A DNA stretch of 64,000 nt from Gammaproteobacteria bacterium (GTDB taxonomy: Bacteria; Pseudomonadota; Gammaproteobacteria; Steroidobacterales; Foliamicaceae): assembly GCA_965200225.1 (NCBI GenBank), contig CBDATM010000001.1, positions 633,510 through 697,509 of the forward strand. The letters run 5' to 3'. Below, piece after piece: positions 15,489 to 25,168 of the stretch. Under the pieces are notes generated by a model. The model saw nothing but the letters and a program-made list of their open reading frames with translations. It made no database searches and had not been told where the DNA came from. Position numbers and translations under genes: made by a program. Every line of letters begins with the position of its first letter. The stretch's first letter is position 1.

Positions 15489-16496
15489 TTACTCGTCGGG
15501 AAGCTTGGGCAGGTCCGGCATCGTCAGGCGCACGAACAGTTCCTCCAGGCGATTGGTCTTGTGCCGGATGCTGGCAACCTGAACGCCGGCCGGACCGAGC
15601 AGCGCGAAGAACTCGTTAAGGCTTCGCTCCGCGGGCACTTCCAGTTCCAGTTCATAACGGCTGCGCCAGTGCACCTGGAAGCCCTTGAACTTGAGGCCTG
15701 GCCGGGCGGGCGACTGAAGCGAGATCACGAAATGCTGTTCGGGCAATTGCCTGAGCACCTGCTCCATCCGGTCCTCCACCACGATTTTCCCGCGGTCGAG
15801 GATCGCCAGGCGGCGGCAGAGGTGCTCGGCTTCCTCCAGGTAGTGGGTGGTCAGGATGATCGTTACGCCCCGTTCGTTAATTTCCCGCAGCAGGTCCCAC
15901 ATCGAACGGCGGATTTCGATATCCACGCCTGCGGTCGGTTCGTCGAGAATCAGCAGCCTGGGGTTATGGACCATCGCGCGGGCGATCATCAGCCGACGCT
16001 TCATTCCGCCGGAAAGCGTGCGCGCAAGCCGGTTGCGCTGGTCCCACAGCCGAACCGCTTTCAGGCATTTCTCGGCCGAACGGCGCGCCTGACGCGGAGT
16101 AAATCCGAAATAGCCTGCCTGTTGCATGAGCGTTGGCAACAGCTTCTCGAACATGTTGAGATTCACTTCTTGCGGCGCTACGCCGATACATCTCTTGACG
16201 GCCTCTTGGTTCTGGTCCAGGTCATGGCCATACACGAGGACCTTTCCGCTGGTCTTGTTGACCAGCGTGGTGATGACTCCAATGGCCGTGGTCTTGCCGG
16301 CGCCGTTGGGGCCCAGCAAGGCGTAGAATTCCCCCTCGCGCACGGTGAGATCAATGCCCTTGAGCGCCCGCACGCCGTTGGGGTAAACCTTGGTGAGTCC
16401 TTTGAGGGAGAGCGCGTCCACAAAAGGGATTGTGCAGCGATGCGGCCGCCGCCGCAAGAGTATTGACTGTGGATCGTTTGAATGAATAATATGCAC
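15489..16496 (-). CDS. ABC-2-type transporter ATP-binding protein (YadG/NatA-like); no adjacent permease
   Basis: Walker A GPNGAGKTT, signature LSGGMKRRLMIARA, Walker B LLILDEPTAGVD and a C-terminal YadG-like extension. The start codon is uncertain. Confidence 0.85.
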   Translation of the reverse strand: MHIIHSNDPQSILLRRRPHRCTIPFVDALSLKGLTKVYPNGVRALKGIDLTVREGEFYALLGPNGAGKTTAIGVITTLVNKTSGKVLVYGHDLDQNQEAVKRCIGVAPQEVNLNMFEKLLPTLMQQAGYFGFTPRQARRSAEKCLKAVRLWDQRNRLARTLSGGMKRRLMIARAMVHNPRLLILDEPTAGVDIEIRRSMWDLLREINERGVTIILTTHYLEEAEHLCRRLAILDRGKIVVEDRMEQVLRQLPEQHFVISLQSPARPGLKFKGFQVHWRSRYELELEVPAERSLNEFFALLGPAGVQVASIRHKTNRLEELFVRLTMPDLPKLPDE

Positions 16497-16527
16497 TCTT
16501 TTGAGATTTTATGAGAATTTTATGCAG
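16463..16527 (+). promoter_or_regulatory. Putative sigma-70 promoter with AT-rich ARG-box-like operator in front of argR
   Basis: TTGACT (16463-16468), an 18-nt spacer and TAATAT (16487-16492). These are embedded in the only AT-rich stretch of this region, which carries repeated TGAAT/ATGAGAwTTTTATG motifs resembling ArgR half-sites. Confidence 0.4.
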
Positions 16528-16968
16528 ACACTTGCCAGCCGGACGGTGCGTCGCCACGAATGCATAGCGGACATCGTCCGCCGTTACAGCGTGGGCAGTC
16601 AGGCCGAGTTGGGCGAAATGCTGGCCGAGCGCGGCATCCGCGTCAGCCAGTCGTGCATAAGCCGTGACCTGTCCTTGCTGGGCGTGGTGAAGCAGGGCCG
16701 CGCCTACACGCTCGACCGCTCCGACATCGCTGCTGAAGATCGCCGGGCGCTGGCGGCCTACGGACGCGGCGTGGACCAGGCCGGCCCGCACCTGGCGATC
16801 GTGCGCACGGCCACCGGATCCGCACAGCGAATAGCGCTGTTTCTGGACCGCAGCGGCTGGCGGGAAGTTCTGGCCACAGTAGCGGGAGACGACACCATTT
16901 TCGTAGCGACGCGCAACCTGGCCGAGCAGCGCGCACTGCTGGCCCGCCTGCGCCGCGAGATGAGTTAG
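16501..16968 (+). CDS. argR: Arginine repressor
   Basis: Winged-helix N-terminus (SQAELGEMLAERGIRVSQSCISRDLSLLGVVK) and a C-terminal oligomerisation/arginine-binding domain (GDDTIFV). The real start is probably the ATG at 16522 (MQTLASR). Confidence 0.88.
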   Translation: MRFYENFMQTLASRTVRRHECIADIVRRYSVGSQAELGEMLAERGIRVSQSCISRDLSLLGVVKQGRAYTLDRSDIAAEDRRALAAYGRGVDQAGPHLAIVRTATGSAQRIALFLDRSGWREVLATVAGDDTIFVATRNLAEQRALLARLRREMS

Positions 16969-16983: not shown

Positions 16984-18210
16984 ATGAGCAATTCACCCAT
17001 CGTGCTGGCTTTCTCCGGCGGACTGGACACGTCCTTCTGCGTGCCCTGGCTGGCCGAGAAGCACCAGCGTCCGGTAGTGACGCTGACGGTCAACACCGGC
17101 GGCATCGGGTCCGAGGACGCCGCCGAGCTGGAGCAGCGCGCCCTGGCGCTGGGCGCCCAAAGGCATCTGCTGGTGGAAGCGCGCCCTCAGTTCTTTGATG
17201 AGGTCATCCGGCACCTGATCGCAGGCAACGTTCGCCGAGGTCACAGCTACCCCTTGTGCGTGGGCGCCGAGCGCGGCATACAGGCGCGGATCCTGGCCCG
17301 TACCGCCAGCGAACTGGGCAGCGATACGGTGGCACACGGCTGCACCGCGGCGGGTAACGATCAGTTCCGCTTCGAGATGGCCATGCGCGCCCTGGTGCCG
17401 GAAATGACCGTGCTGGCGCCGGTGCGCGACGAGTCGCTTCAGCGCGCAACGCAACTGGAATACCTGAGGCAGCGCAACGCTCCGGAAATTCCGACCGGCG
17501 GCGATTATTCGATTAATCGCGGCCTGTGGGGGGTGACCATCGGCGGCAGGGAAACGCTCACCTCGGCGGATTCGATCCCCGAGTCCGCATGGGTGCTGTC
17601 TGTGGGGGCGCTGGAGAAACCGCTTGCGGAAGAGTCGCATGAACTGGATTTCGAGGCCGGCGTGCCGGTGCGCTGGGACGGCCGGCGCCTTCCGCCGGTG
17701 GAGCTGATCGAGGCGGTGGAGGCGAGCGCCGCGCGGTTCGGCATCGGCAGGGGCATCCACCTGGGCGATACCATTCTCGGCGCCAAGGGCCGGGTCGCCT
17801 ACGAGGCGCCGGGCGCGGAGGTTCTGCTCACCGCCCATCGCGAACTGGAGAAGCTCACATTGGGCGCCGGTCAATTGCGCGTGAAGGACACGCTGGCGGC
17901 GGTTTATGGCGACCTGGTGCATGAGGGCAAGCATCTCGATCCGGTATGCCGCGACATCGAGGCCTTCTTCGACAGCTCGCAGCAATACGTGAGCGGCCGT
18001 GTCCATCTGGCGCTCAGGCCCGCAAGCGTGTGGGTGCGGGGGGTGGAATCGAACCACTCCCTGCTTGCCGCCACCCGCGGCGTCTACGGCGAGTCCGCCG
18101 GAGAGTGGACCCCGCGGGACGCGCTGGGAGCCGCCCGGGTGCTGTCGCTGCCCGGCCTGCTGCACAGCCGGGTGGCGGCTTCCGCCAGGAAAGGGGGCGG
18201 CGATGCGTAG
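16984..18210 (+). CDS. argG: Argininosuccinate synthase
   Basis: N-terminal PP-loop IVLAFSGGLDTS and argininosuccinate synthase signature regions. 408 aa. Confidence 0.93.
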   Translation: MSNSPIVLAFSGGLDTSFCVPWLAEKHQRPVVTLTVNTGGIGSEDAAELEQRALALGAQRHLLVEARPQFFDEVIRHLIAGNVRRGHSYPLCVGAERGIQARILARTASELGSDTVAHGCTAAGNDQFRFEMAMRALVPEMTVLAPVRDESLQRATQLEYLRQRNAPEIPTGGDYSINRGLWGVTIGGRETLTSADSIPESAWVLSVGALEKPLAEESHELDFEAGVPVRWDGRRLPPVELIEAVEASAARFGIGRGIHLGDTILGAKGRVAYEAPGAEVLLTAHRELEKLTLGAGQLRVKDTLAAVYGDLVHEGKHLDPVCRDIEAFFDSSQQYVSGRVHLALRPASVWVRGVESNHSLLAATRGVYGESAGEWTPRDALGAARVLSLPGLLHSRVAASARKGGGDA

Positions 18211-19264
18211 CGTGGTTGTGGACAAGCTGGCCTCGGTGGCGTCCGGCCTGGAGCTGGAGCGCGAAATCCGCGTGGGCAACGAGATTCCCAACGAGGAAGG
18301 CGTGCTGCTTGCAGTGGAGGTGCTTAACGACAAGTCGTCCTACAACCGGCTGGAACTGGCCAGCGGCCGCATGGCTCGGGTGTGCCGCGGAGACATTGTG
18401 GTGGGCGCCCTGGGGCACAGGAAAGCCTTGTTCGGATACGCGGGCCACGTGCCGGAATCGGTCCGCGCCGGAGATGTGCTGCAATTGCTCAACATAGGTG
18501 GTGTGTTGGGTGTGTGCGATTCGGTAAACGCCACCATGGGGCCGCCCTTCGACGCCCGGGTGCTGGGGGTGGTGCTGGAGTTCCCCTATCTGGGCGAGCG
18601 CGTGGGCATACCTGCCCGGGTAGGCGGCGAAGCGCTGCCGGACGCGGATTCCGGCGACCTGGATCTCGGCGGCGTGCCAGTGGTGGCCCTGGCCGGCACC
18701 ACCATGAATTCCGGCAAGACGGCGGCCGCCTGCGCAATCATCGGCCGTCTGCGGCATGAAGGATGTGTGGTGGACGCTTTCAAGGCCACCGGAGTGTCGC
18801 TGCGCCGCGACATCCTGGCCATGGAGGACGCGGGTGCGCGCAATACTGCGATTTTCACCGATTTCGGTGTGGTGAGCACCGCTCCGCAGAACGCGCCCCG
18901 CCTGGTGCGAGCCATGCTGAGACAGATGGCGGCCGCTGCGCCCGACATCATTCTCTTTGAACTGGGCGACGGCATACTCGGGGCCTACGGCGTGGAGGCG
19001 ATCCTGGAGGACGAAAAAATACGCTCTGCCATCAGTTGTCTTCTGCTGTGCGCCAGCGATCCCGTTGCCGCGTGGGGCGGCGCCGCCCTGCTGAAGGAGC
19101 ACTACGGAATCGAGGTGGCCGCAGTTACCGGACCCGCCACCGACAACCAGGTAGGACTCGACATCCTGCGGCAGCGTGTCGGCGTGCCCGGCTACAACGC
19201 GATTACCCACAGCGCGGACCTGGGCGAGTTCGTGGCCCGCAGCCTGGGCCTGAAGCAGCCATGA
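18203..19264 (+). CDS. Uncharacterised two-domain protein (N-terminal beta-rich domain + P-loop/DTBS-like domain) embedded in the arg operon
   Basis: MRSVVVDKL... is 353 aa. It has the P-loop-like VVALAGTTMNSGKTAAACAIIGRL. Its start overlaps the argG stop by 8 nt and its stop overlaps the argC start (ATGA). I do not recognise it as any canonical arg enzyme. Confidence 0.6.
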   Translation: MRSVVVDKLASVASGLELEREIRVGNEIPNEEGVLLAVEVLNDKSSYNRLELASGRMARVCRGDIVVGALGHRKALFGYAGHVPESVRAGDVLQLLNIGGVLGVCDSVNATMGPPFDARVLGVVLEFPYLGERVGIPARVGGEALPDADSGDLDLGGVPVVALAGTTMNSGKTAAACAIIGRLRHEGCVVDAFKATGVSLRRDILAMEDAGARNTAIFTDFGVVSTAPQNAPRLVRAMLRQMAAAAPDIILFELGDGILGAYGVEAILEDEKIRSAISCLLLCASDPVAAWGGAALLKEHYGIEVAAVTGPATDNQVGLDILRQRVGVPGYNAITHSADLGEFVARSLGLKQP

Positions 19265-20310
19265 GCGTCCCCGCGGTAGTGCTGGGCGCCTCGGGCTATG
19301 TAGCCGGCGAACTGTTGCGCATCCTCGCCGGCCACCCGGAATTCCGGGTGGCGGCGGCAATCTCGCAGAGTAATGCGGGCACCGAAGTGGAGTCCCTGTT
19401 TCCCAATCTCACCGGTCTCTGGCCGGATTTTCGCTTTCGGCCCCTGGCCGAACTCGAAGAGGTGCTGAGCCAGCCGTGCGCTGTTTTCTCCTGCGCGCCG
19501 CATGGGGCTAGCGCCGGGCTTGTCGCGAATGTCCTCAAACTCGCCGGGAAGCTTGATTCCGAAGTTCGGATCGTGGATGTTTCCGCCGACTTCCGTTACG
19601 GCGCCGCCCAAGCCTATGAGCAGGTCTATGGGACCCCCCACGCCGCTCCGGAGTTGTTGTCGAAGTTTTTCTGCGCGCTTCCCGAGCATCGGGCGCAAGC
19701 AGATGCCCCGCATGTGGGTCACCCTGGATGTTTCGCCAGCGCCTTGCTGCTCGCGTCTGTGCCACTGATGCGCTTTGCGCTCACCGACACTCCACTTTTT
19801 GCCAGTGGCGTGACCGGTAGCACCGGTGCCGGCAAGCGGCCGCTGCCAACCACTCATCACCCGCTGCGTCATTCCAACCTGTTCGCTTACCGGCCGCTGC
19901 GTCATCGTCATGCGCCCGAGGTGGAAGAGGTCTGTGAGGCGGTAAGCGGCCGACGTCCGCAGTTGCAGTTCGTGCCGCATTCGGGACCGTTCGCGCGCGG
20001 AATCCACCTCACGATGCAGGCTGGCCTGAAACCCTCAGTGAGCGAGCGGCAGGTGAAGAATGCCTTCGAGCAGAGTTACGGCGATGCGCCGTTCGTGCAT
20101 CTGACGGACTCGCCGCCGCGCCTGAAGAGTGTGGTTGGCAGCAATCATGCGCATCTGTCGGTTACCGTCGAAGGCGGTTCGGTGGCGGTTTTCGTAGCGC
20201 TGGACAACCTGGTGAAAGGCGCTGCCGGCGGAGCGGTGCAATGGGCCAATCGCTTGTACGGATTCGATGAGACGGCCGGTCTGACCGCTCCGGGGCTGGC
20301 ATGGACATGA
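19261..20310 (+). CDS. argC: N-acetyl-gamma-glutamyl-phosphate reductase
   Basis: MSVPAVVLGASGYVAGELLRILAGHPEF (Rossmann) and the catalytic Cys region HVGHPGCFASA. The upstream 75 codons of the track ORF are antisense-like filler. Confidence 0.9.
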   Translation: MSVPAVVLGASGYVAGELLRILAGHPEFRVAAAISQSNAGTEVESLFPNLTGLWPDFRFRPLAELEEVLSQPCAVFSCAPHGASAGLVANVLKLAGKLDSEVRIVDVSADFRYGAAQAYEQVYGTPHAAPELLSKFFCALPEHRAQADAPHVGHPGCFASALLLASVPLMRFALTDTPLFASGVTGSTGAGKRPLPTTHHPLRHSNLFAYRPLRHRHAPEVEEVCEAVSGRRPQLQFVPHSGPFARGIHLTMQAGLKPSVSERQVKNAFEQSYGDAPFVHLTDSPPRLKSVVGSNHAHLSVTVEGGSVAVFVALDNLVKGAAGGAVQWANRLYGFDETAGLTAPGLAWT

Positions 20311-20335: not shown

Positions 20336-21538
20336 ATGGACATGAGCGTGCAACAGGCGGCAGGCAAGCTCGACGATGCGCGCAGCCTGGAAGCGGCCCA
20401 CCTGGCGCAGGTGTATGCCCAATTCCCGTTCGAGGTGGTCGCCGGCGAGGGGTCGTATCTGATCTGCGCCGATGGCCGCCGGCTGCTGGACCTCTACGGG
20501 GGACACGCTGTATGCGCCCTGGGATACGGCCATCCGCGCCTGCTGGCCGCCCTCAAGCGGCAGGCCGGCGAGCTGTTTTTCGCCAGCAATGCGATGGCGC
20601 TCAGGGTGCGGGCGCGGGCCGCCGAAAAGCTGGCGCGGTTCGCTCCCGACGGATTGAGCCGGGTGTTTTTCGTGAATTCGGGAGCGGAGGCCAATGAGAA
20701 TGCCCTGCGTCTGGCCTGTCGGCTTACCGGGCGCTCCCGGGTTGTCGCTCTTGAGCACGGTTTTCATGGACGCACGGCTGCCGCTGCCGCCGTCAGTTGG
20801 GGCGCGCGGGAGCGCTGGTACGGCTTTCCGCAAACGCCGTTCGAGGTGGCGTTCGCGCCGCGCGACAATGCCGCGGCCCTTGCGGCGATGATCGACGGGG
20901 AGACGGCCGCCGTCATACTGGAGCCGATACAGGGTCTGGGGGGCGCCTATCCCCTGGACAGCGAAGTGCTGGGCGCGGCGCGCGCGGCCTGCGATGCCCA
21001 CGGCGCCTTTTTCATCGCCGACGAAGTGCAATGCGGAATGGGCCGCAGCGGCTTGCCATTCGCCGTTTCGCATGCCGGCGTGGTGCCCGACCTGCTCATC
21101 ACCGCGAAGTCGCTTGCCGCGGGCTTTCCCTGCGGAGCGCTGCTGATGCACGAGGACTGCGCTGCGCAGCTCGCCAAGGGCGATCTCGGCAGCACCTTCG
21201 GGGGCGGTCCGCTGGCTTGCGCCGCGATTGAAGCGGTGCTGGAAGTGATGCATGAAGAGCAGCTTCCCGAACGGGCGGCGGAGCGCGAGCGTCAAGTACG
21301 CGCCACTTGCGCTCACGGCCCGGTCGAGGCGATACAGGGCCGAGGTTTGCTGCTGGCCCTCAAATGCACGAGCGGCGCGACTGCCGCCAGGGACCGGCTG
21401 CTGGATGCGGACATCCTGACCGGCACCAGCGCGGTGCCGGGCTGGCTGCGGCTCATGCCCCCGCTTACCCTTCGCGAGAATGAGGCAGCCGCGCTGGCCG
21501 CCGCCCTTAGTCAACCTGGTGCGCGGTCCCGCAAATGA
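20336..21538 (+). CDS. argD: Acetylornithine (class-III) aminotransferase
   Basis: FFVNSGAEANENALRLA, FIADEVQCGMGRSG and a PLP-lysine region LITAKSLAAGFP. Confidence 0.88.
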   Translation: MDMSVQQAAGKLDDARSLEAAHLAQVYAQFPFEVVAGEGSYLICADGRRLLDLYGGHAVCALGYGHPRLLAALKRQAGELFFASNAMALRVRARAAEKLARFAPDGLSRVFFVNSGAEANENALRLACRLTGRSRVVALEHGFHGRTAAAAAVSWGARERWYGFPQTPFEVAFAPRDNAAALAAMIDGETAAVILEPIQGLGGAYPLDSEVLGAARAACDAHGAFFIADEVQCGMGRSGLPFAVSHAGVVPDLLITAKSLAAGFPCGALLMHEDCAAQLAKGDLGSTFGGGPLACAAIEAVLEVMHEEQLPERAAERERQVRATCAHGPVEAIQGRGLLLALKCTSGATAARDRLLDADILTGTSAVPGWLRLMPPLTLRENEAAALAAALSQPGARSRK

Positions 21539-21583: not shown

Positions 21584-22600
21584 ATGAGTGAAGTACAACG
21601 ATTCGACGACCTGGCCGATTTCACGGCGGCAGAAATATCGGCGCTGCTTGCGCTGTCGGCCCGCCTCGAGCGCGAACCCGAACCGGAGGCGCTGAAAGGC
21701 AAGGTTCTGTCGCTGCTGTTTCTCAACCCCTCGCTACGGACCCTGGCCTCATTTCAGGCTTCCATGACCCGGCTGGGGGGCGGCGCCTTCGTGATCTCGC
21801 CGGAGATGTCGATTCACGGGCTGGAGACGCGCCCGGGAATCGTCATGGACGGCGCTGCCGCGGAGCATGTCCGAGAGGCGGTCCCGGTGATCGCCTCGTA
21901 TGGCGATGCCTTGGGCCTGCGGGCTTTCGCGGAGCGGCGCGACCTGGTGGAGGATCTGGAGGACCGGGAATACCGCGGCCTTGCGGAACTGGTCTCCACG
22001 CCGCTGATCAACATGGAGTCGGCGATCAACCATCCTTGCCAGAGTCTGGCGGACTGGAAGACGATGGACGACCTGGACATTCCGGCTTCCGGGGGCAAGT
22101 TTGTGCTCAGCTGGGCCTATCACCCGCTGGCGCTGCCGCTGGCGGTTCCGGCGGCCACGGTCCAGATGGCGGCCATGCGAGGCATGGACGTAACCGTGCT
22201 GCGGCCCGACGGGTTCGAACTGCCGCCGCTGGTGATGGACAAGGCGAAGCGGCTCGCCGAGCGCTCCGGCGGCTCCGTTGAGGAAACGGACAACCGCCCG
22301 GAGGCGCTGGACGGCGCCCATGTGCTGTATGCCAAATCCTGGAGTTCGACCCGCCATTACGGCGACAAGCATTCCGACTATCAGTTGCGCAACCAGCTTG
22401 AGGACTGGTGCGTGGACGAGGACTGGTTCCAACCCGCTGAAACCGGCTGCCGGTTCATGCACTGTCTGCCGGTTCGCCGCAAAGTGGTGGTGAGCGAGGC
22501 GGTGCTGGACGGCCCGCGCAGCGTCGTGGTGGCGGAAGCGCGCAATCGCATGTGGGTGCAGATGGCCGTTCTCTACGCCATGCTGGGACCGGGACTGTGA
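21584..22600 (+). CDS. argF': N-acetylornithine (or N-succinylornithine) carbamoyltransferase, ArgF' type
   Basis: SLRT, HPCQ and HCLPVRR motifs, plus VMDG...EHV, VLYAKSW and AEARNRMWVQMAVL. These resemble my memory of Xanthomonas AOTCase rather than classical OTCase. Confidence 0.8.
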   Translation: MSEVQRFDDLADFTAAEISALLALSARLEREPEPEALKGKVLSLLFLNPSLRTLASFQASMTRLGGGAFVISPEMSIHGLETRPGIVMDGAAAEHVREAVPVIASYGDALGLRAFAERRDLVEDLEDREYRGLAELVSTPLINMESAINHPCQSLADWKTMDDLDIPASGGKFVLSWAYHPLALPLAVPAATVQMAAMRGMDVTVLRPDGFELPPLVMDKAKRLAERSGGSVEETDNRPEALDGAHVLYAKSWSSTRHYGDKHSDYQLRNQLEDWCVDEDWFQPAETGCRFMHCLPVRRKVVVSEAVLDGPRSVVVAEARNRMWVQMAVLYAMLGPGL

Positions 22601-23535
22601 ACCGCAAGCGGACTAGCGGCGCGGGATTCGGCGCGCTGCGAGCCGCCGCGCCGTACCTGCGCCTGTACCAGGACCGCGTGTTCGTGGTCAAGCTGGGCGG
22701 CGAGGTGCTGAGCCGGGCCAGCCGCATCGAAGCACTGGTGGAACAGGCGGCGGTGTTGCAGGCCCTGGGAGTTCGCGTGGTCATCGTGCATGGTGGCGGG
22801 CCGCAATCCACCGAGCTGACCACCCGGCTCAAGCACGAGGCGCGCATGGTGGCCGGCCGCCGCGTCACCGGCTCCGAGGATCTGAAGGTGGCCAGCTATG
22901 TGCTGAACGGCGAGGTGAATACGCAGTTGCTGTCCGCTTGCCGGCTCTGCGGCGTTCCGGCCGTCGGCCTGTCCGGCGTGGACGCGGGCCTGGTTGTGGC
23001 CCGCCGCCGCCCGCCGATGAAGATCGAGGGCGCTGGCGAGGAGCCGGTGGATTTCGGCTTTGTGGGCGACATAGAGAAGGTGGAGCCGGCAGTGTTGAAC
23101 ATGCTGTTGAAGAAACGCTTTCTGCCCATCGTCAGTCCGCTCTCCGCGGACTCGAAGGGCGGGCTTCTCAACATCAACGCTGACACGGTGGCGGCTGCGG
23201 TGGCAACGGCCATAGGGGCCGAGAAGCTGGTGCTCACCATGGCCGCGCCGGGCATTCTTTCGGACCGCTCGGATGTTTCCACGCTGTTGTCCTACCTGGA
23301 TCTTTCCGGCTTGCGCAAACTGCGCGCGGAGGGCGCCCTGGCCGACGGCATGCTGCCCAAGACGGCCGCCATCGAGGCCGCGATCAGAGGGGGCGTGCCG
23401 AGGGTCCACCTGGTGTCGGGAAGCACCCAGGACGCTCTGCTGCGCGAAGTGTTCACCAACGAGGGTTGCGGGACCATGGTGGTGCGCAGCATCGACGCCC
23501 TGTCGACCGCCGAGCAGGAGGCGGGCAGGCAGTGA
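22597..23535 (+). CDS. argB: Acetylglutamate kinase
   Basis: APYLRLYQDRVFVVKLGGEVL and VIVHGGGPQ. A GTG at 22597 overlaps the argF' TGA (GTGA). The track start at 22552 is an alternative. Confidence 0.88.
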   Translation: MNRKRTSGAGFGALRAAAPYLRLYQDRVFVVKLGGEVLSRASRIEALVEQAAVLQALGVRVVIVHGGGPQSTELTTRLKHEARMVAGRRVTGSEDLKVASYVLNGEVNTQLLSACRLCGVPAVGLSGVDAGLVVARRRPPMKIEGAGEEPVDFGFVGDIEKVEPAVLNMLLKKRFLPIVSPLSADSKGGLLNINADTVAAAVATAIGAEKLVLTMAAPGILSDRSDVSTLLSYLDLSGLRKLRAEGALADGMLPKTAAIEAAIRGGVPRVHLVSGSTQDALLREVFTNEGCGTMVVRSIDALSTAEQEAGRQ

Positions 23536-24722
23536 CCCGGCTCTGGGACAAGGGCGGGAAGCTCGACGACGCCGTGCTGCGCTATACCGCGGGCGAGGAC
23601 CATCGCCTGGACGGCCGGCTGGTGGCGTACGATGCGCGGGCCTCTATCGCCCATGCCGGGATGTTGCATGCGGCGGGCTATCTGTCGGATCAGGATCATG
23701 CCGGGATCGTGAGCGGTCTGGAGGCGTTGGCCAGCGAGCACGCGGCCGGGAAGTGGACCATCTCCCTCGAAGAGGAAGACGTGCATACCGCGCTGGAGCG
23801 GCGCTTGGTGGCGCGCATAGGCCAGGCCGGCGAGCGGGTGCATCTGGGACGTTCCCGCAACGATCAGGTGCTGGCGGCCTTGCGGCTGTACCTCAAGGAT
23901 GCGGCTGCTGACCTGGAGCGGGCCGCCACCGCCGTCGCGGACGAACTGAGCGGCCTGGATGCGCGCCAGGGCGGCTTGCCCTTGCCCGGTTATACGCACA
24001 TGCAGCAGGCCATGCCCATCAGCGTGGGACTGTGGGCGCGCGGCTTCATGGGGGAGTTGCGCGACGATGCCGCGGGTCTGGCTGGAACCGCGCGGCGCAT
24101 GGACCGCAATCCGCTGGGCAGCGCCGCCGGTTTCGGCGCTCCGGGGCTAGACATCGACCGCGAACAAACGCGCGCCAGCCTGGGTTTTGCCGAAGTGCAG
24201 GAGCCGGTAACTTCGGTGCAGCTTTCGCGCGGAAAAGCGGAGGCGGGCCTGTTGTTCGAGTGCGCCTTGCTGATGCAGGACCTCGGCCGTCTGGCCGCCG
24301 ACCTGCTGCTGTTCTATACACGGGAATTCTCGCTGGTCCGCCTGGCGGGCGAGGTCACGACCGGTTCTTCGATCATGCCCCAGAAGCGCAATCCCGATGC
24401 GCTGGAGCTGGTTCGGGGCGCCGGAGCTACGGTACGGGCCTGCCTGCTGGAAGTGCTGGGCATAACGGCGTCCCTGCCTTCCGGTTATCAGCGCGATCTG
24501 CAGCGCATCAAGGCGCCGCTTTTCCGGGGCATCGATCTGACCGGCGAGAGTTGCGCCGTCCTGTGCCGTATAGTGCGCGTTTTGCGCTTTGTGCCCGGAC
24601 GCTGCGAGGAACTGGCCTCGGCGCCGGGGCTGCGGGCCGCCGAACAGGCCAACCGGCTGGTTGTGGAACAAGGCGTCAGCTTTCGCGAGGCCTACCGCAG
24701 GGTTGCAAGGCAGGAGGAATAG
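23532..24722 (+). CDS. argH: Argininosuccinate lyase (short form)
   Basis: Fumarate-lyase signature GSSIMPQKRNPD and HLGRSRNDQV. A GTG at 23532 overlaps the argB TGA. Confidence 0.9.
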   Translation: MTRLWDKGGKLDDAVLRYTAGEDHRLDGRLVAYDARASIAHAGMLHAAGYLSDQDHAGIVSGLEALASEHAAGKWTISLEEEDVHTALERRLVARIGQAGERVHLGRSRNDQVLAALRLYLKDAAADLERAATAVADELSGLDARQGGLPLPGYTHMQQAMPISVGLWARGFMGELRDDAAGLAGTARRMDRNPLGSAAGFGAPGLDIDREQTRASLGFAEVQEPVTSVQLSRGKAEAGLLFECALLMQDLGRLAADLLLFYTREFSLVRLAGEVTTGSSIMPQKRNPDALELVRGAGATVRACLLEVLGITASLPSGYQRDLQRIKAPLFRGIDLTGESCAVLCRIVRVLRFVPGRCEELASAPGLRAAEQANRLVVEQGVSFREAYRRVARQEE

Positions 24723-25168
24723 TGTCCGCGCGCATATGGCATCCCAAGGCGTTCAGCCGCCCCGAACAGTTGAACGCCATGGAAGAAAACCGGATGCTGG
24801 GGCATCTGGGGGTGGAGATCGTCGAGATCGGCGACGACTTCCTGCGTGCGCGCATGCCCGTGGACCATCGCACCCAGCAACCCTTCGGCCTGTTGCACGG
24901 TGGCGCCTCGGCGGTGTTGGCGGAATCGGTGGGAAGCTGGTCTTCGTACCTGTGCACGCCTCCGGGCGAATACCGGGTGCTCGGCCTGGAGATCAACGTC
25001 AGCCACCTGCGCCCGGCGCGCTCGGGCTACGTGTACGGCACGGCCCGCCCCATACGCATCGGCAGCGTGGTGCATGTGTGGGACATTCGCGTAACGGACG
25101 AAGAGGGCGCACTGCTGAGCGTGGCTCGTCTGAGCACATCCGTCCGCCCGATCAGGAAACCGCGCTGA
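24722..25168 (+). CDS. PaaI/YbdB-type hotdog-fold thioesterase
   Basis: The motif GLLHGGASAVLAESVGS is typical of PaaI-family thioesterases. A GTG at 24722 overlaps the argH TAG by 1 nt. An alternative start is the ATG near 24779. Confidence 0.75.
   Translation: MSARIWHPKAFSRPEQLNAMEENRMLGHLGVEIVEIGDDFLRARMPVDHRTQQPFGLLHGGASAVLAESVGSWSSYLCTPPGEYRVLGLEINVSHLRPARSGYVYGTARPIRIGSVVHVWDIRVTDEEGALLSVARLSTSVRPIRKPR

Follow-up and report, generated by a model that had tools for sequence, protein, structure and literature searches.

A P-loop protein encoded within gammaproteobacterial arginine operons is a predicted N-succinylglutamate-forming enzyme

The subject of this study is gene X, a 353-amino-acid open reading frame in a 64,000-nucleotide stretch of a gammaproteobacterial genome (assembly GCA_965200225.1, contig CBDATM010000001.1, positions 633,510 to 697,509; hereafter the window). 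Gene X occupies positions 18203-19264 of the forward strand, between argG and argC in a cluster of arginine biosynthetic genes (Table 1). Its ATG (18203) lies 8 nt inside argG, which ends with the TAG at 18208-18210, and its TGA (19262-19264) overlaps the argC ATG at 19261 by 4 nt in an ATGA junction. Further overlaps are found at the argF'/argB (GTGA), argB/argH (GTGA), and argH/thioesterase (1 nt) junctions. Since the junctions overlap in this way and the only promoter-like match detected for the operon is upstream of argR, the nine genes argR-argG-X-argC-argD-argF'-argB-argH-thioesterase look like one operon.

Table 1. Coordinates of the arginine operon features in the window, with the family models or motifs that identify them
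Feature	Position	Strand	Evidence and remarks
sigma-70-like promoter match	16463..16492	+	TTGACT, 16-18 nt spacer, AATAAT/TAATAT, 9-10/12 matches; consensus match only
argR, arginine repressor	16501..16968	+	TIGR01529, E 1.8e-27; start TTG 16501 or ATG 16522
argG, argininosuccinate synthase	16984..18210	+	TIGR00032, 269.6 bits (cutoff 268.2)
gene X, predicted N-succinylglutamate-forming enzyme	18203..19264	+	N-terminal beta domain 1-~130; P-loop domain 157-350; Lys194, Asp203, Glu253
argC	19261..20310	+	TIGR01850, 294.8 bits (cutoff 233.6); overlaps gene X end
argD, N-acylornithine aminotransferase	20336..21538	+	TIGR00707, E 8.7e-90; NF002874, E 1.8e-94
argF', AOTCase-family N-acylornithine carbamoyltransferase, predicted N-succinylornithine-specific	21584..22600	+	NF003384, 324 bits (cutoff 288); Ala93
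argB, N-acylglutamate kinase	22597..23535	+	TIGR00761, 202.8 bits; AA_kinase only Pfam domain, no acetyltransferase domain
argH, argininosuccinate lyase, short form 396 aa	23532..24722	+	TIGR00838, 302.9 bits, model positions 10-386 of 455
hotdog-fold thioesterase (4HBT, PaaI/EntH/MenI-like)	24722..25168	+	PF03061; TIGR00369, 122.9 bits

The start codon of gene X is supported by relatives of 351-360 amino acids, whose alignment with X begins at residue 1, and by a purine-rich stretch upstream of the ATG. More than 6,700 relatives were scored among 90% sequence clusters, all of them annotated as "hypothetical" and the labelled ones mostly from Gammaproteobacteria, and an exhaustive search recovered 1,386 family representatives (50% clustering, E≤1e-3); on this basis, gene X is a real gene and not a chance open reading frame. 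It is present as a single copy in its own genome. No Pfam or NCBIfam family matched X, the best score being to MobB at E 0.04. Atlas clusters neighboring the X family are mostly from Acidobacteriota.

The AlphaFold model of X (pLDDT 95.6, pTM 0.92, with a 56-sequence alignment as input) consists of two domains: residues 1 to ~130 form only beta strands, and residues 157-350 form an alpha/beta P-loop domain, with a Walker-A-like motif, GTTMNSGKT, at residues 165-173. The C-terminal domain has a SIMIBI-class P-loop fold. Its top structural matches, obtained with VIA, an aligner that is independent of Foldseek, are tied between dethiobiotin synthetase (3of5, Z 16.8, root-mean-square deviation 2.6, 177 aligned residues), the DUF1611 protein 2g0t (Z 16.6), CTP synthase (7dpt, Z 16.0), the DUF1611 protein 2obn (Z 15.8), and DgcN (7xrj, Z 15.0). 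In total, 124 PDB representatives matched at Z of at least 8, and the top 50 consist entirely of SIMIBI members and their close kin. Foldseek placed SRP GTPases and BioD on top (E ~1e-6). With hhalign, X was compared to a DgcN/DUF1611 alignment of eight sequences from genomes of the same class, which scores 404 bits on DgcN 7xrj; the probability was 71% (E 3.7e-5, 182 columns, C-terminal domain only). When the N-terminal domain was modeled alone (pLDDT 77), it gave no Foldseek match at E≤0.001 and no convincing PDB match, and its best VIA score of Z 3.8, to Tudor and LexA-like barrels, is not proof of a new fold. A preliminary description of this DNA, made from the letters and their translations, had already reported the overlapping 353-codon frame between argG and argC, a beta-rich N-terminal domain joined to a Walker-A-containing C-terminal domain, and a resemblance to folds of the dethiobiotin synthetase or DUF1611 type; the sequence confirms the frame, its junctions, and the Walker-A-like motif, and the AlphaFold model confirms the two domains.

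The gene order argR-argG-X-argC-argD-argF'-argB-argH is conserved in 80/80 genome loci whose X proteins are 61-89% identical to X. In a metagenome scan seeded with relatives 36-41% identical to X, arg genes lie beside X in 78 of 80 loci (36-62% identity), in several arrangements and despite rearrangements, and in all 48 of the metagenome loci of at least 6 kb, arg genes adjoin X. Nine loci (74-76% identity to X) retain only argR-X-argC-argD-argB, which corresponds to the module leading from glutamate to N-acylornithine. These nine loci are nearly identical, with argG, argF', and argH elsewhere in the same genomes, and their record titles disagree, some naming Gammaproteobacteria and others Gemmatimonadetes or Longimicrobiales; this would reflect either taxonomic mislabeling of metagenome-assembled genomes (MAGs) or recent transfer. 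In six distant clusters, X is accompanied by an ArgE/DapE-type M20 gene.

The enzyme of the first step of arginine biosynthesis is not apparent by other means in the genome that encodes X, which is 2.58 Mb in size and 97.5% complete. Neither ArgJ nor ArgA was found in it, the ArgA model matching only argB, below cutoff, and no PF00583, PF13508, or PF04768 (NAT) acetyltransferase was found above cutoff. The genome is nearly without recognizable GNAT proteins, with one sub-threshold match of 19.6 bits to PF00583 and none to PF13508 or PF04768, and such a near-absence is unusual for a free-standing 2.6-Mb genome. We profiled X (orthologues defined by a score of >390 bits) across an even sample of ~250 genomes of the class, in which there were six carriers, including the genome studied here. 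ArgA was above cutoff in 0/6 of the carriers vs 154/251 genomes across the sample, and ArgJ was found in 0/6 carriers: the distribution of X among the six carriers is mutually exclusive with those of ArgA and ArgJ.

We infer that X probably makes N-succinyl-L-glutamate, as the first step of arginine biosynthesis, and thereby replaces ArgA or ArgJ. This judgment applies to the predicted function and not to the identity of the acyl donor. The preliminary description had noted that the cluster of argR, G, C, D, F', B, and H encodes no ArgA, ArgJ, or ArgE equivalent, and family models agree, both for the cluster and, with respect to ArgA, ArgJ, and canonical ArgE, for the remainder of the genome. 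It had further suggested that X replaces one of the missing steps. That proposal is supported by conservation of the operon down to 36% identity, by the absence of both ArgA and ArgJ from all six orthologue genomes, and by the published GapMind prediction for the protein ACG33_RS14135 of Steroidobacter denitrificans (discussed below), although for the first step and not for an ArgE-type step. Its description of the carbamoyltransferase as acetylornithine-type holds for the family (NF003384) but probably not for the acetyl substrate.

The nature of the acyl group is suggested by the carbamoyltransferase ArgF', in which Ala93 aligns with Glu92 of the Xanthomonas campestris N-acetylornithine carbamoyltransferase (AOTCase; PDB 3kzc). 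The PDB entries that match ArgF' best are three mutants of that enzyme, E92A, E92S, and E92V (3l02, 3l05, and 3l06). Mutation of AOTCase Glu92 to Ala, Pro, Ser, or Val is described as resulting in the use of N-succinylornithine (Shi et al. 2007, as cited in PMC13759103). Every one of the 63 close loci has Ala at the corresponding position, and the residues in the 42 distant loci are Ala (18), Thr (17), Val (3), Gln (3), and Ser (1), so that Glu was found in 0/105 X-linked loci. Because of the non-Glu residue at this position of ArgF', the pathway intermediates are probably succinylated rather than acetylated.

In the proposed pathway, X would convert L-glutamate to N-succinyl-L-glutamate, which ArgB, ArgC, and ArgD would convert to N-succinylornithine. 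After carbamoylation of N-succinylornithine by ArgF', citrulline would be released by a hydrolase whose gene is not part of the operon, leaving ArgG and ArgH to complete the pathway. Canonical ArgE was not found in the operon or in the genome, and no AstE-type desuccinylase was found in the genome. Above cutoff, the only M20 hydrolases of the genome are DapE and an M20D amidohydrolase (C1:918900-922829 and C1:352475-356371). DapE scores 533 bits on the DapE model and 90 bits on the ArgE model TIGR01892 (cutoff 298), and DapE enzymes act on an N-succinyl amino acid. The M20D protein is CpsA/DoeB2-like (TIGR01891, 278 bits) and belongs to the same M20D subfamily as an alternative ArgE that was validated in GapMind 2026 (PMC13759103). 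Either of the two could be the N-succinylcitrulline desuccinylase.

Two mechanisms would account for the formation of N-succinylglutamate by X. In the first, an ATP-dependent ligation, the P-loop domain would phosphorylate free succinate to succinyl phosphate, which would be attacked by the alpha-amine of glutamate. In the second, the succinyl group would be transferred from succinyl-CoA. Provided that the predicted function is correct, we give ATP ligation about an even chance, succinyl-CoA a somewhat smaller share, and other donors the small remainder, and the two mechanisms fit the evidence about equally. Whether or not X is a CoA-independent, ATP-driven ligase is the focal question raised by this protein.

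Dethiobiotin synthetase, CTP synthase, and CobQ share the fold of the X C-terminal domain and perform ATP-dependent ligation chemistry. In BioD and CTP synthase, a characteristic set of residues binds Mg-ATP and stabilizes phosphoryl transfer to a substrate oxygen before attack by an amine. We surveyed 304 full-length members of the X family, ~26-100% identical to X, for the equivalent positions. The Walker A Lys, the Thr/Ser directly after it, and Lys194 each occur in 302/304 members; Asp203 and Glu253 hardly vary. A profile search of the PDB matched X to Mycobacterium tuberculosis BioD (E 1.8e-4) over ~50 residues with the P-loop aligned, and the same alignment places the GKT of X on BioD Lys15/Thr16 and X Lys194 on BioD Lys37. 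By motif position only, Asp203 and Glu253 would be equivalent to the Mg2+ ligands of BioD. In the three solved DUF1611 proteins, including DgcN, the Walker A motif is GK[M/R]xT, so that its Lys is not followed by Ser/Thr, and the counterpart of Lys37 is Arg or Leu; the same Walker A pattern is found in the eight-sequence DUF1611 alignment. Because X keeps the GKT and Lys194 and DgcN has neither, these residues appear to place X closer than DgcN to the ATP-dependent amidoligases. Two arginines of the N-terminal domain are candidate carboxylate binders: Arg73, which is invariant, and Arg56, which varies in a paralogous clade but is conserved among the clades linked to arg genes. The domain may bind the dicarboxylate substrates. 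That X is an ATP-dependent succinate:L-glutamate ligase, an amidoligase of the BioD/CTP-synthase type that uses a succinyl phosphate intermediate and no acyl-CoA, is a proposal that we make tentatively, at rather less than even odds.

The mechanism implied by the published GapMind rationale is that of a DgcN-like acyl-CoA transferase acting on succinyl-CoA and L-glutamate, in which the only role of the P-loop would be to bind the phosphates of CoA; the overall function would be unchanged, and we regard this variant as possible but doubtful. DgcN (7xrj; VIA Z 15.0, hhalign 71% vs DUF1611) is the only characterized enzyme of related fold that N-acylates glutamate, and an Atlas cluster neighboring the X family is auto-named 'putative DUF1611'. 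To our knowledge, all ArgA/GNAT-type N-acylglutamate synthases use acyl-CoA, which also speaks for this mechanism. However, the three solved DUF1611 proteins, among them DgcN, lack both the Ser/Thr after the Walker Lys and the Lys37 equivalent that X keeps, the N-terminal domains are unrelated, and X falls below the PF07755 cutoff. Because X has retained the ATP-amidoligase residues that DgcN lacks, a succinate-glutamate ligase is as plausible as a succinyl-CoA transferase. A larger departure would be that X makes N-acetylglutamate or another N-acylglutamate instead of the succinyl form. ArgF' does score above cutoff on a model named N-acetylornithine carbamoyltransferase, and its specificity is deduced from one residue, for which the Thr and Gln variants are outside the set of tested mutants. 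Yet the Glu of the acetyl-specific enzyme is in none of the 105 ArgF' neighbors, and Ala, Ser, and Val at this position are described as converting the X. campestris enzyme to succinylornithine (3l02, 3l05, 3l06; PMC13759103), and we consider a non-succinyl product very unlikely.

Two further explanations would remove X from the first step. As a regulatory, chaperone, or assembly NTPase, for example a metabolon organizer or a SIMIBI-like metallochaperone, it would leave that step to another enzyme encoded elsewhere. Many of its structural neighbors are non-enzymatic (SRP/FtsY, HypB, UreG, MinD/ParA), its Walker A is canonical, and operon position alone is no proof of catalysis. Nevertheless, the gap in the pathway is for an enzyme and not a regulator, the operon already contains argR, and X anti-correlates specifically with ArgA and ArgJ; in addition, its best structural ties are to BioD, CTP synthase, and DUF1611 rather than to G3E chaperones, and the amidoligase subgroup typically has a lysine corresponding to Lys37. 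We therefore disfavor a noncatalytic role as unlikely. The absence of canonical ArgE from the operon and genome, where DapE is far below the TIGR01892 cutoff, might instead suggest that X is an ArgE-type deacylase of N-acylcitrulline or N-acylornithine. This we think extremely improbable: X is paired with steps 2-4 in the argR-X-argC-argD-argB operons and occurs alongside an ArgE/DapE-type M20 gene in six distant clusters. The genome also encodes two plausible hydrolases elsewhere, DapE and the M20D amidohydrolase, and we know of no amide hydrolase with the fold of X.

Several points weigh against X being the N-succinylglutamate-forming enzyme of arginine biosynthesis. The profiled genomes are related to one another and include only six carriers, so the exclusion between X and ArgA or ArgJ is a descriptive comparison rather than a formal statistical test. 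Homology to DgcN, the only characterized relative, is remote and confined to the C-terminal domain, the N-terminal domains being different, and the fold class to which X belongs is rich in non-enzymatic NTPases. The acyl group is uncertain in lineages where ArgF' has Thr or Gln, which are outside the tested mutant set. Orthology between X and ACG33_RS14135 is judged indirectly, from proteins labeled Steroidobacteraceae. Finally, there is a paralogous clade, 27-31% identical to X and with the same two-domain layout, in genomes that possess ArgA. Several of the paralogue loci are directly before an ABC exporter, in some cases followed by an alpha/beta hydrolase and an OprO/P-type porin, and no arg genes were found near the paralogue loci. 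Because the paralogues co-occur with ArgA and are located away from arg genes, the chemistry of the X superfamily is broader than arginine synthesis. The paralogous clade may perform another amide-forming step, for an exported compound. Some of the paralogue loci are also near DUF6502/DUF5666 genes or a two-component system.

Fusions of X to other proteins were considered as Rosetta-stone evidence and rejected. Nineteen longer proteins join X to ArgC, ArgG, or ArgD, each represented by a single member on a single contig, and they mirror the overlapping gene junctions and are most likely gene-call or frameshift merges. P0222, which joins X to an amino-acid kinase, was a hit of the search of family representatives, whose hits carry no member counts.

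At the distal end of the operon, the thioesterase gene is coupled translationally to argH: its GTG shares 1 nt with the argH stop codon and is preceded by AGGAGG. The thioesterase gene follows argH in 11/80 related loci, which indicates a lineage-specific addition. ArgH of the window is 57-105 residues shorter than the ArgH proteins of distant arg clusters, and its relatives of at least 60% identity end within ~0-16 residues of its own end. Because those relatives stop near the same point, the C-terminal truncation of ArgH is, on this sequence comparison, characteristic of the lineage rather than an artifact of assembly.

Metabolic reconstructions from genomes repeatedly leave a gap at the first step of arginine biosynthesis, and the X family would fill that gap for many mostly uncultured bacteria. 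If the predicted function is correct, X would represent a non-GNAT route to N-acylglutamate. If X is in addition an ATP-dependent ligase, it would be the first such route to be independent of CoA, with succinate as a recyclable protecting group. It would then constitute a new class of enzyme for this step, with a novel arrangement of two domains, the N-terminal one lacking a solved counterpart.

The pathway step proposed for X is the one performed by ArgA (AAK+GNAT), ArgJ, the short GNAT-type N-acetylglutamate synthases (NAGS), and the bifunctional NAGS/K enzymes. The classical NAGS folds are of the GNAT or Ntn type, whereas X has a P-loop fold, and X has no match to the ArgA (TIGR01890), GNAT, or ArgJ (PF01960) models. 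In the LysW carrier pathway, LysX/ArgX mask the amine of glutamate or aminoadipate by ATP-dependent ligation. This is a precedent for the ligase mechanism by analogy only: LysX/ArgX have an ATP-grasp fold and use a carrier protein rather than succinate as the protecting group, and no sequence or structural similarity between them and X was seen. The BioD and CTP synthase amidoligase domains are nearer to X in that they share the SIMIBI fold, the GKT, and Asp/Glu residues at the Mg2+-ligand positions, and their chemistry, phosphorylation of an oxygen followed by attack of an amine, would yield an N-succinyl amide in X. Unlike BioD, X matches no BioD family model, has an extra 130-residue N-terminal domain, and would act on different substrates from within a different operon.

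DgcN, a D-glutamate N-acetyltransferase of the DUF1611 family (PF07755/PF17396), resembles X in having a C-terminal SIMIBI P-loop domain (PDB 7XRJ, 2OBN, and 2G0T for the family; Z 15.0-16.6) with the common layout P-loop ... xTG ... D ... E-x-G, and its substrate is glutamate, which is N-acylated on the alpha-amine as proposed for X. DgcN reportedly uses acetyl-CoA as the donor with D-glutamate. The N-terminal domain of DgcN is the Rossmann-like DUF1611_N, whereas that of X is all-beta; the DUF1611 motifs are GTDxxxGK[M/R]xT and ATGQTG, compared to GTTMNSGKT and FKATGV in X; and the virtually invariant Lys194 of X (302/304) is replaced in DUF1611 by Arg or Leu. DgcN acts on D-glutamate in a catabolic pathway, and X would act on L-glutamate, probably with a succinyl group, in a biosynthetic one. 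No match of X to DUF1611 (PF07755) was found at E≤1; some remote relatives of X have sub-threshold PF07755 matches of ~20 bits on the P-loop. A survey of the Mariana Trench identified Woeseiales as major carriers of 'dgcN' (PMC12363236). Woeseiaceae-labeled MAGs carry the arg-operon X gene, and some 'dgcN' calls might be X-family genes.

The closest known system is ACG33_RS14135 of S. denitrificans, for which GapMind 2026 predicted N-succinylglutamate synthase activity (PLoS Genet, PMC13759103, S1B Text; preprint 10.1101/2024.10.14.618325, Appendix 2). The case made there combined location within the operon, mutual exclusivity with ArgA, a weak match to 7XRJ by Foldseek, and ArgF' position 92, and the authors label their assignment a prediction (PMC13759103). 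Each of these arguments is independently replicated by the present analysis. Like ACG33_RS14135, X is a hypothetical protein in the arg operon of a gammaproteobacterium without ArgA; the two also share a weak structural resemblance to DgcN 7XRJ and a neighboring ArgF' in which position 92 is not Glu. Full-length identity to X is 64-66% for orthologues labeled Steroidobacteraceae, which keep the operon and gene order, and by sequence X very likely belongs to the same family as ACG33_RS14135. The published account of ACG33_RS14135 contains no acyl donor or residue analysis, and the ATP-amidoligase residue analysis is new here. The function of X is thus already predicted in print, and what is added here is a further member of the family, an independent replication of the prediction, and a sharper mechanistic question.

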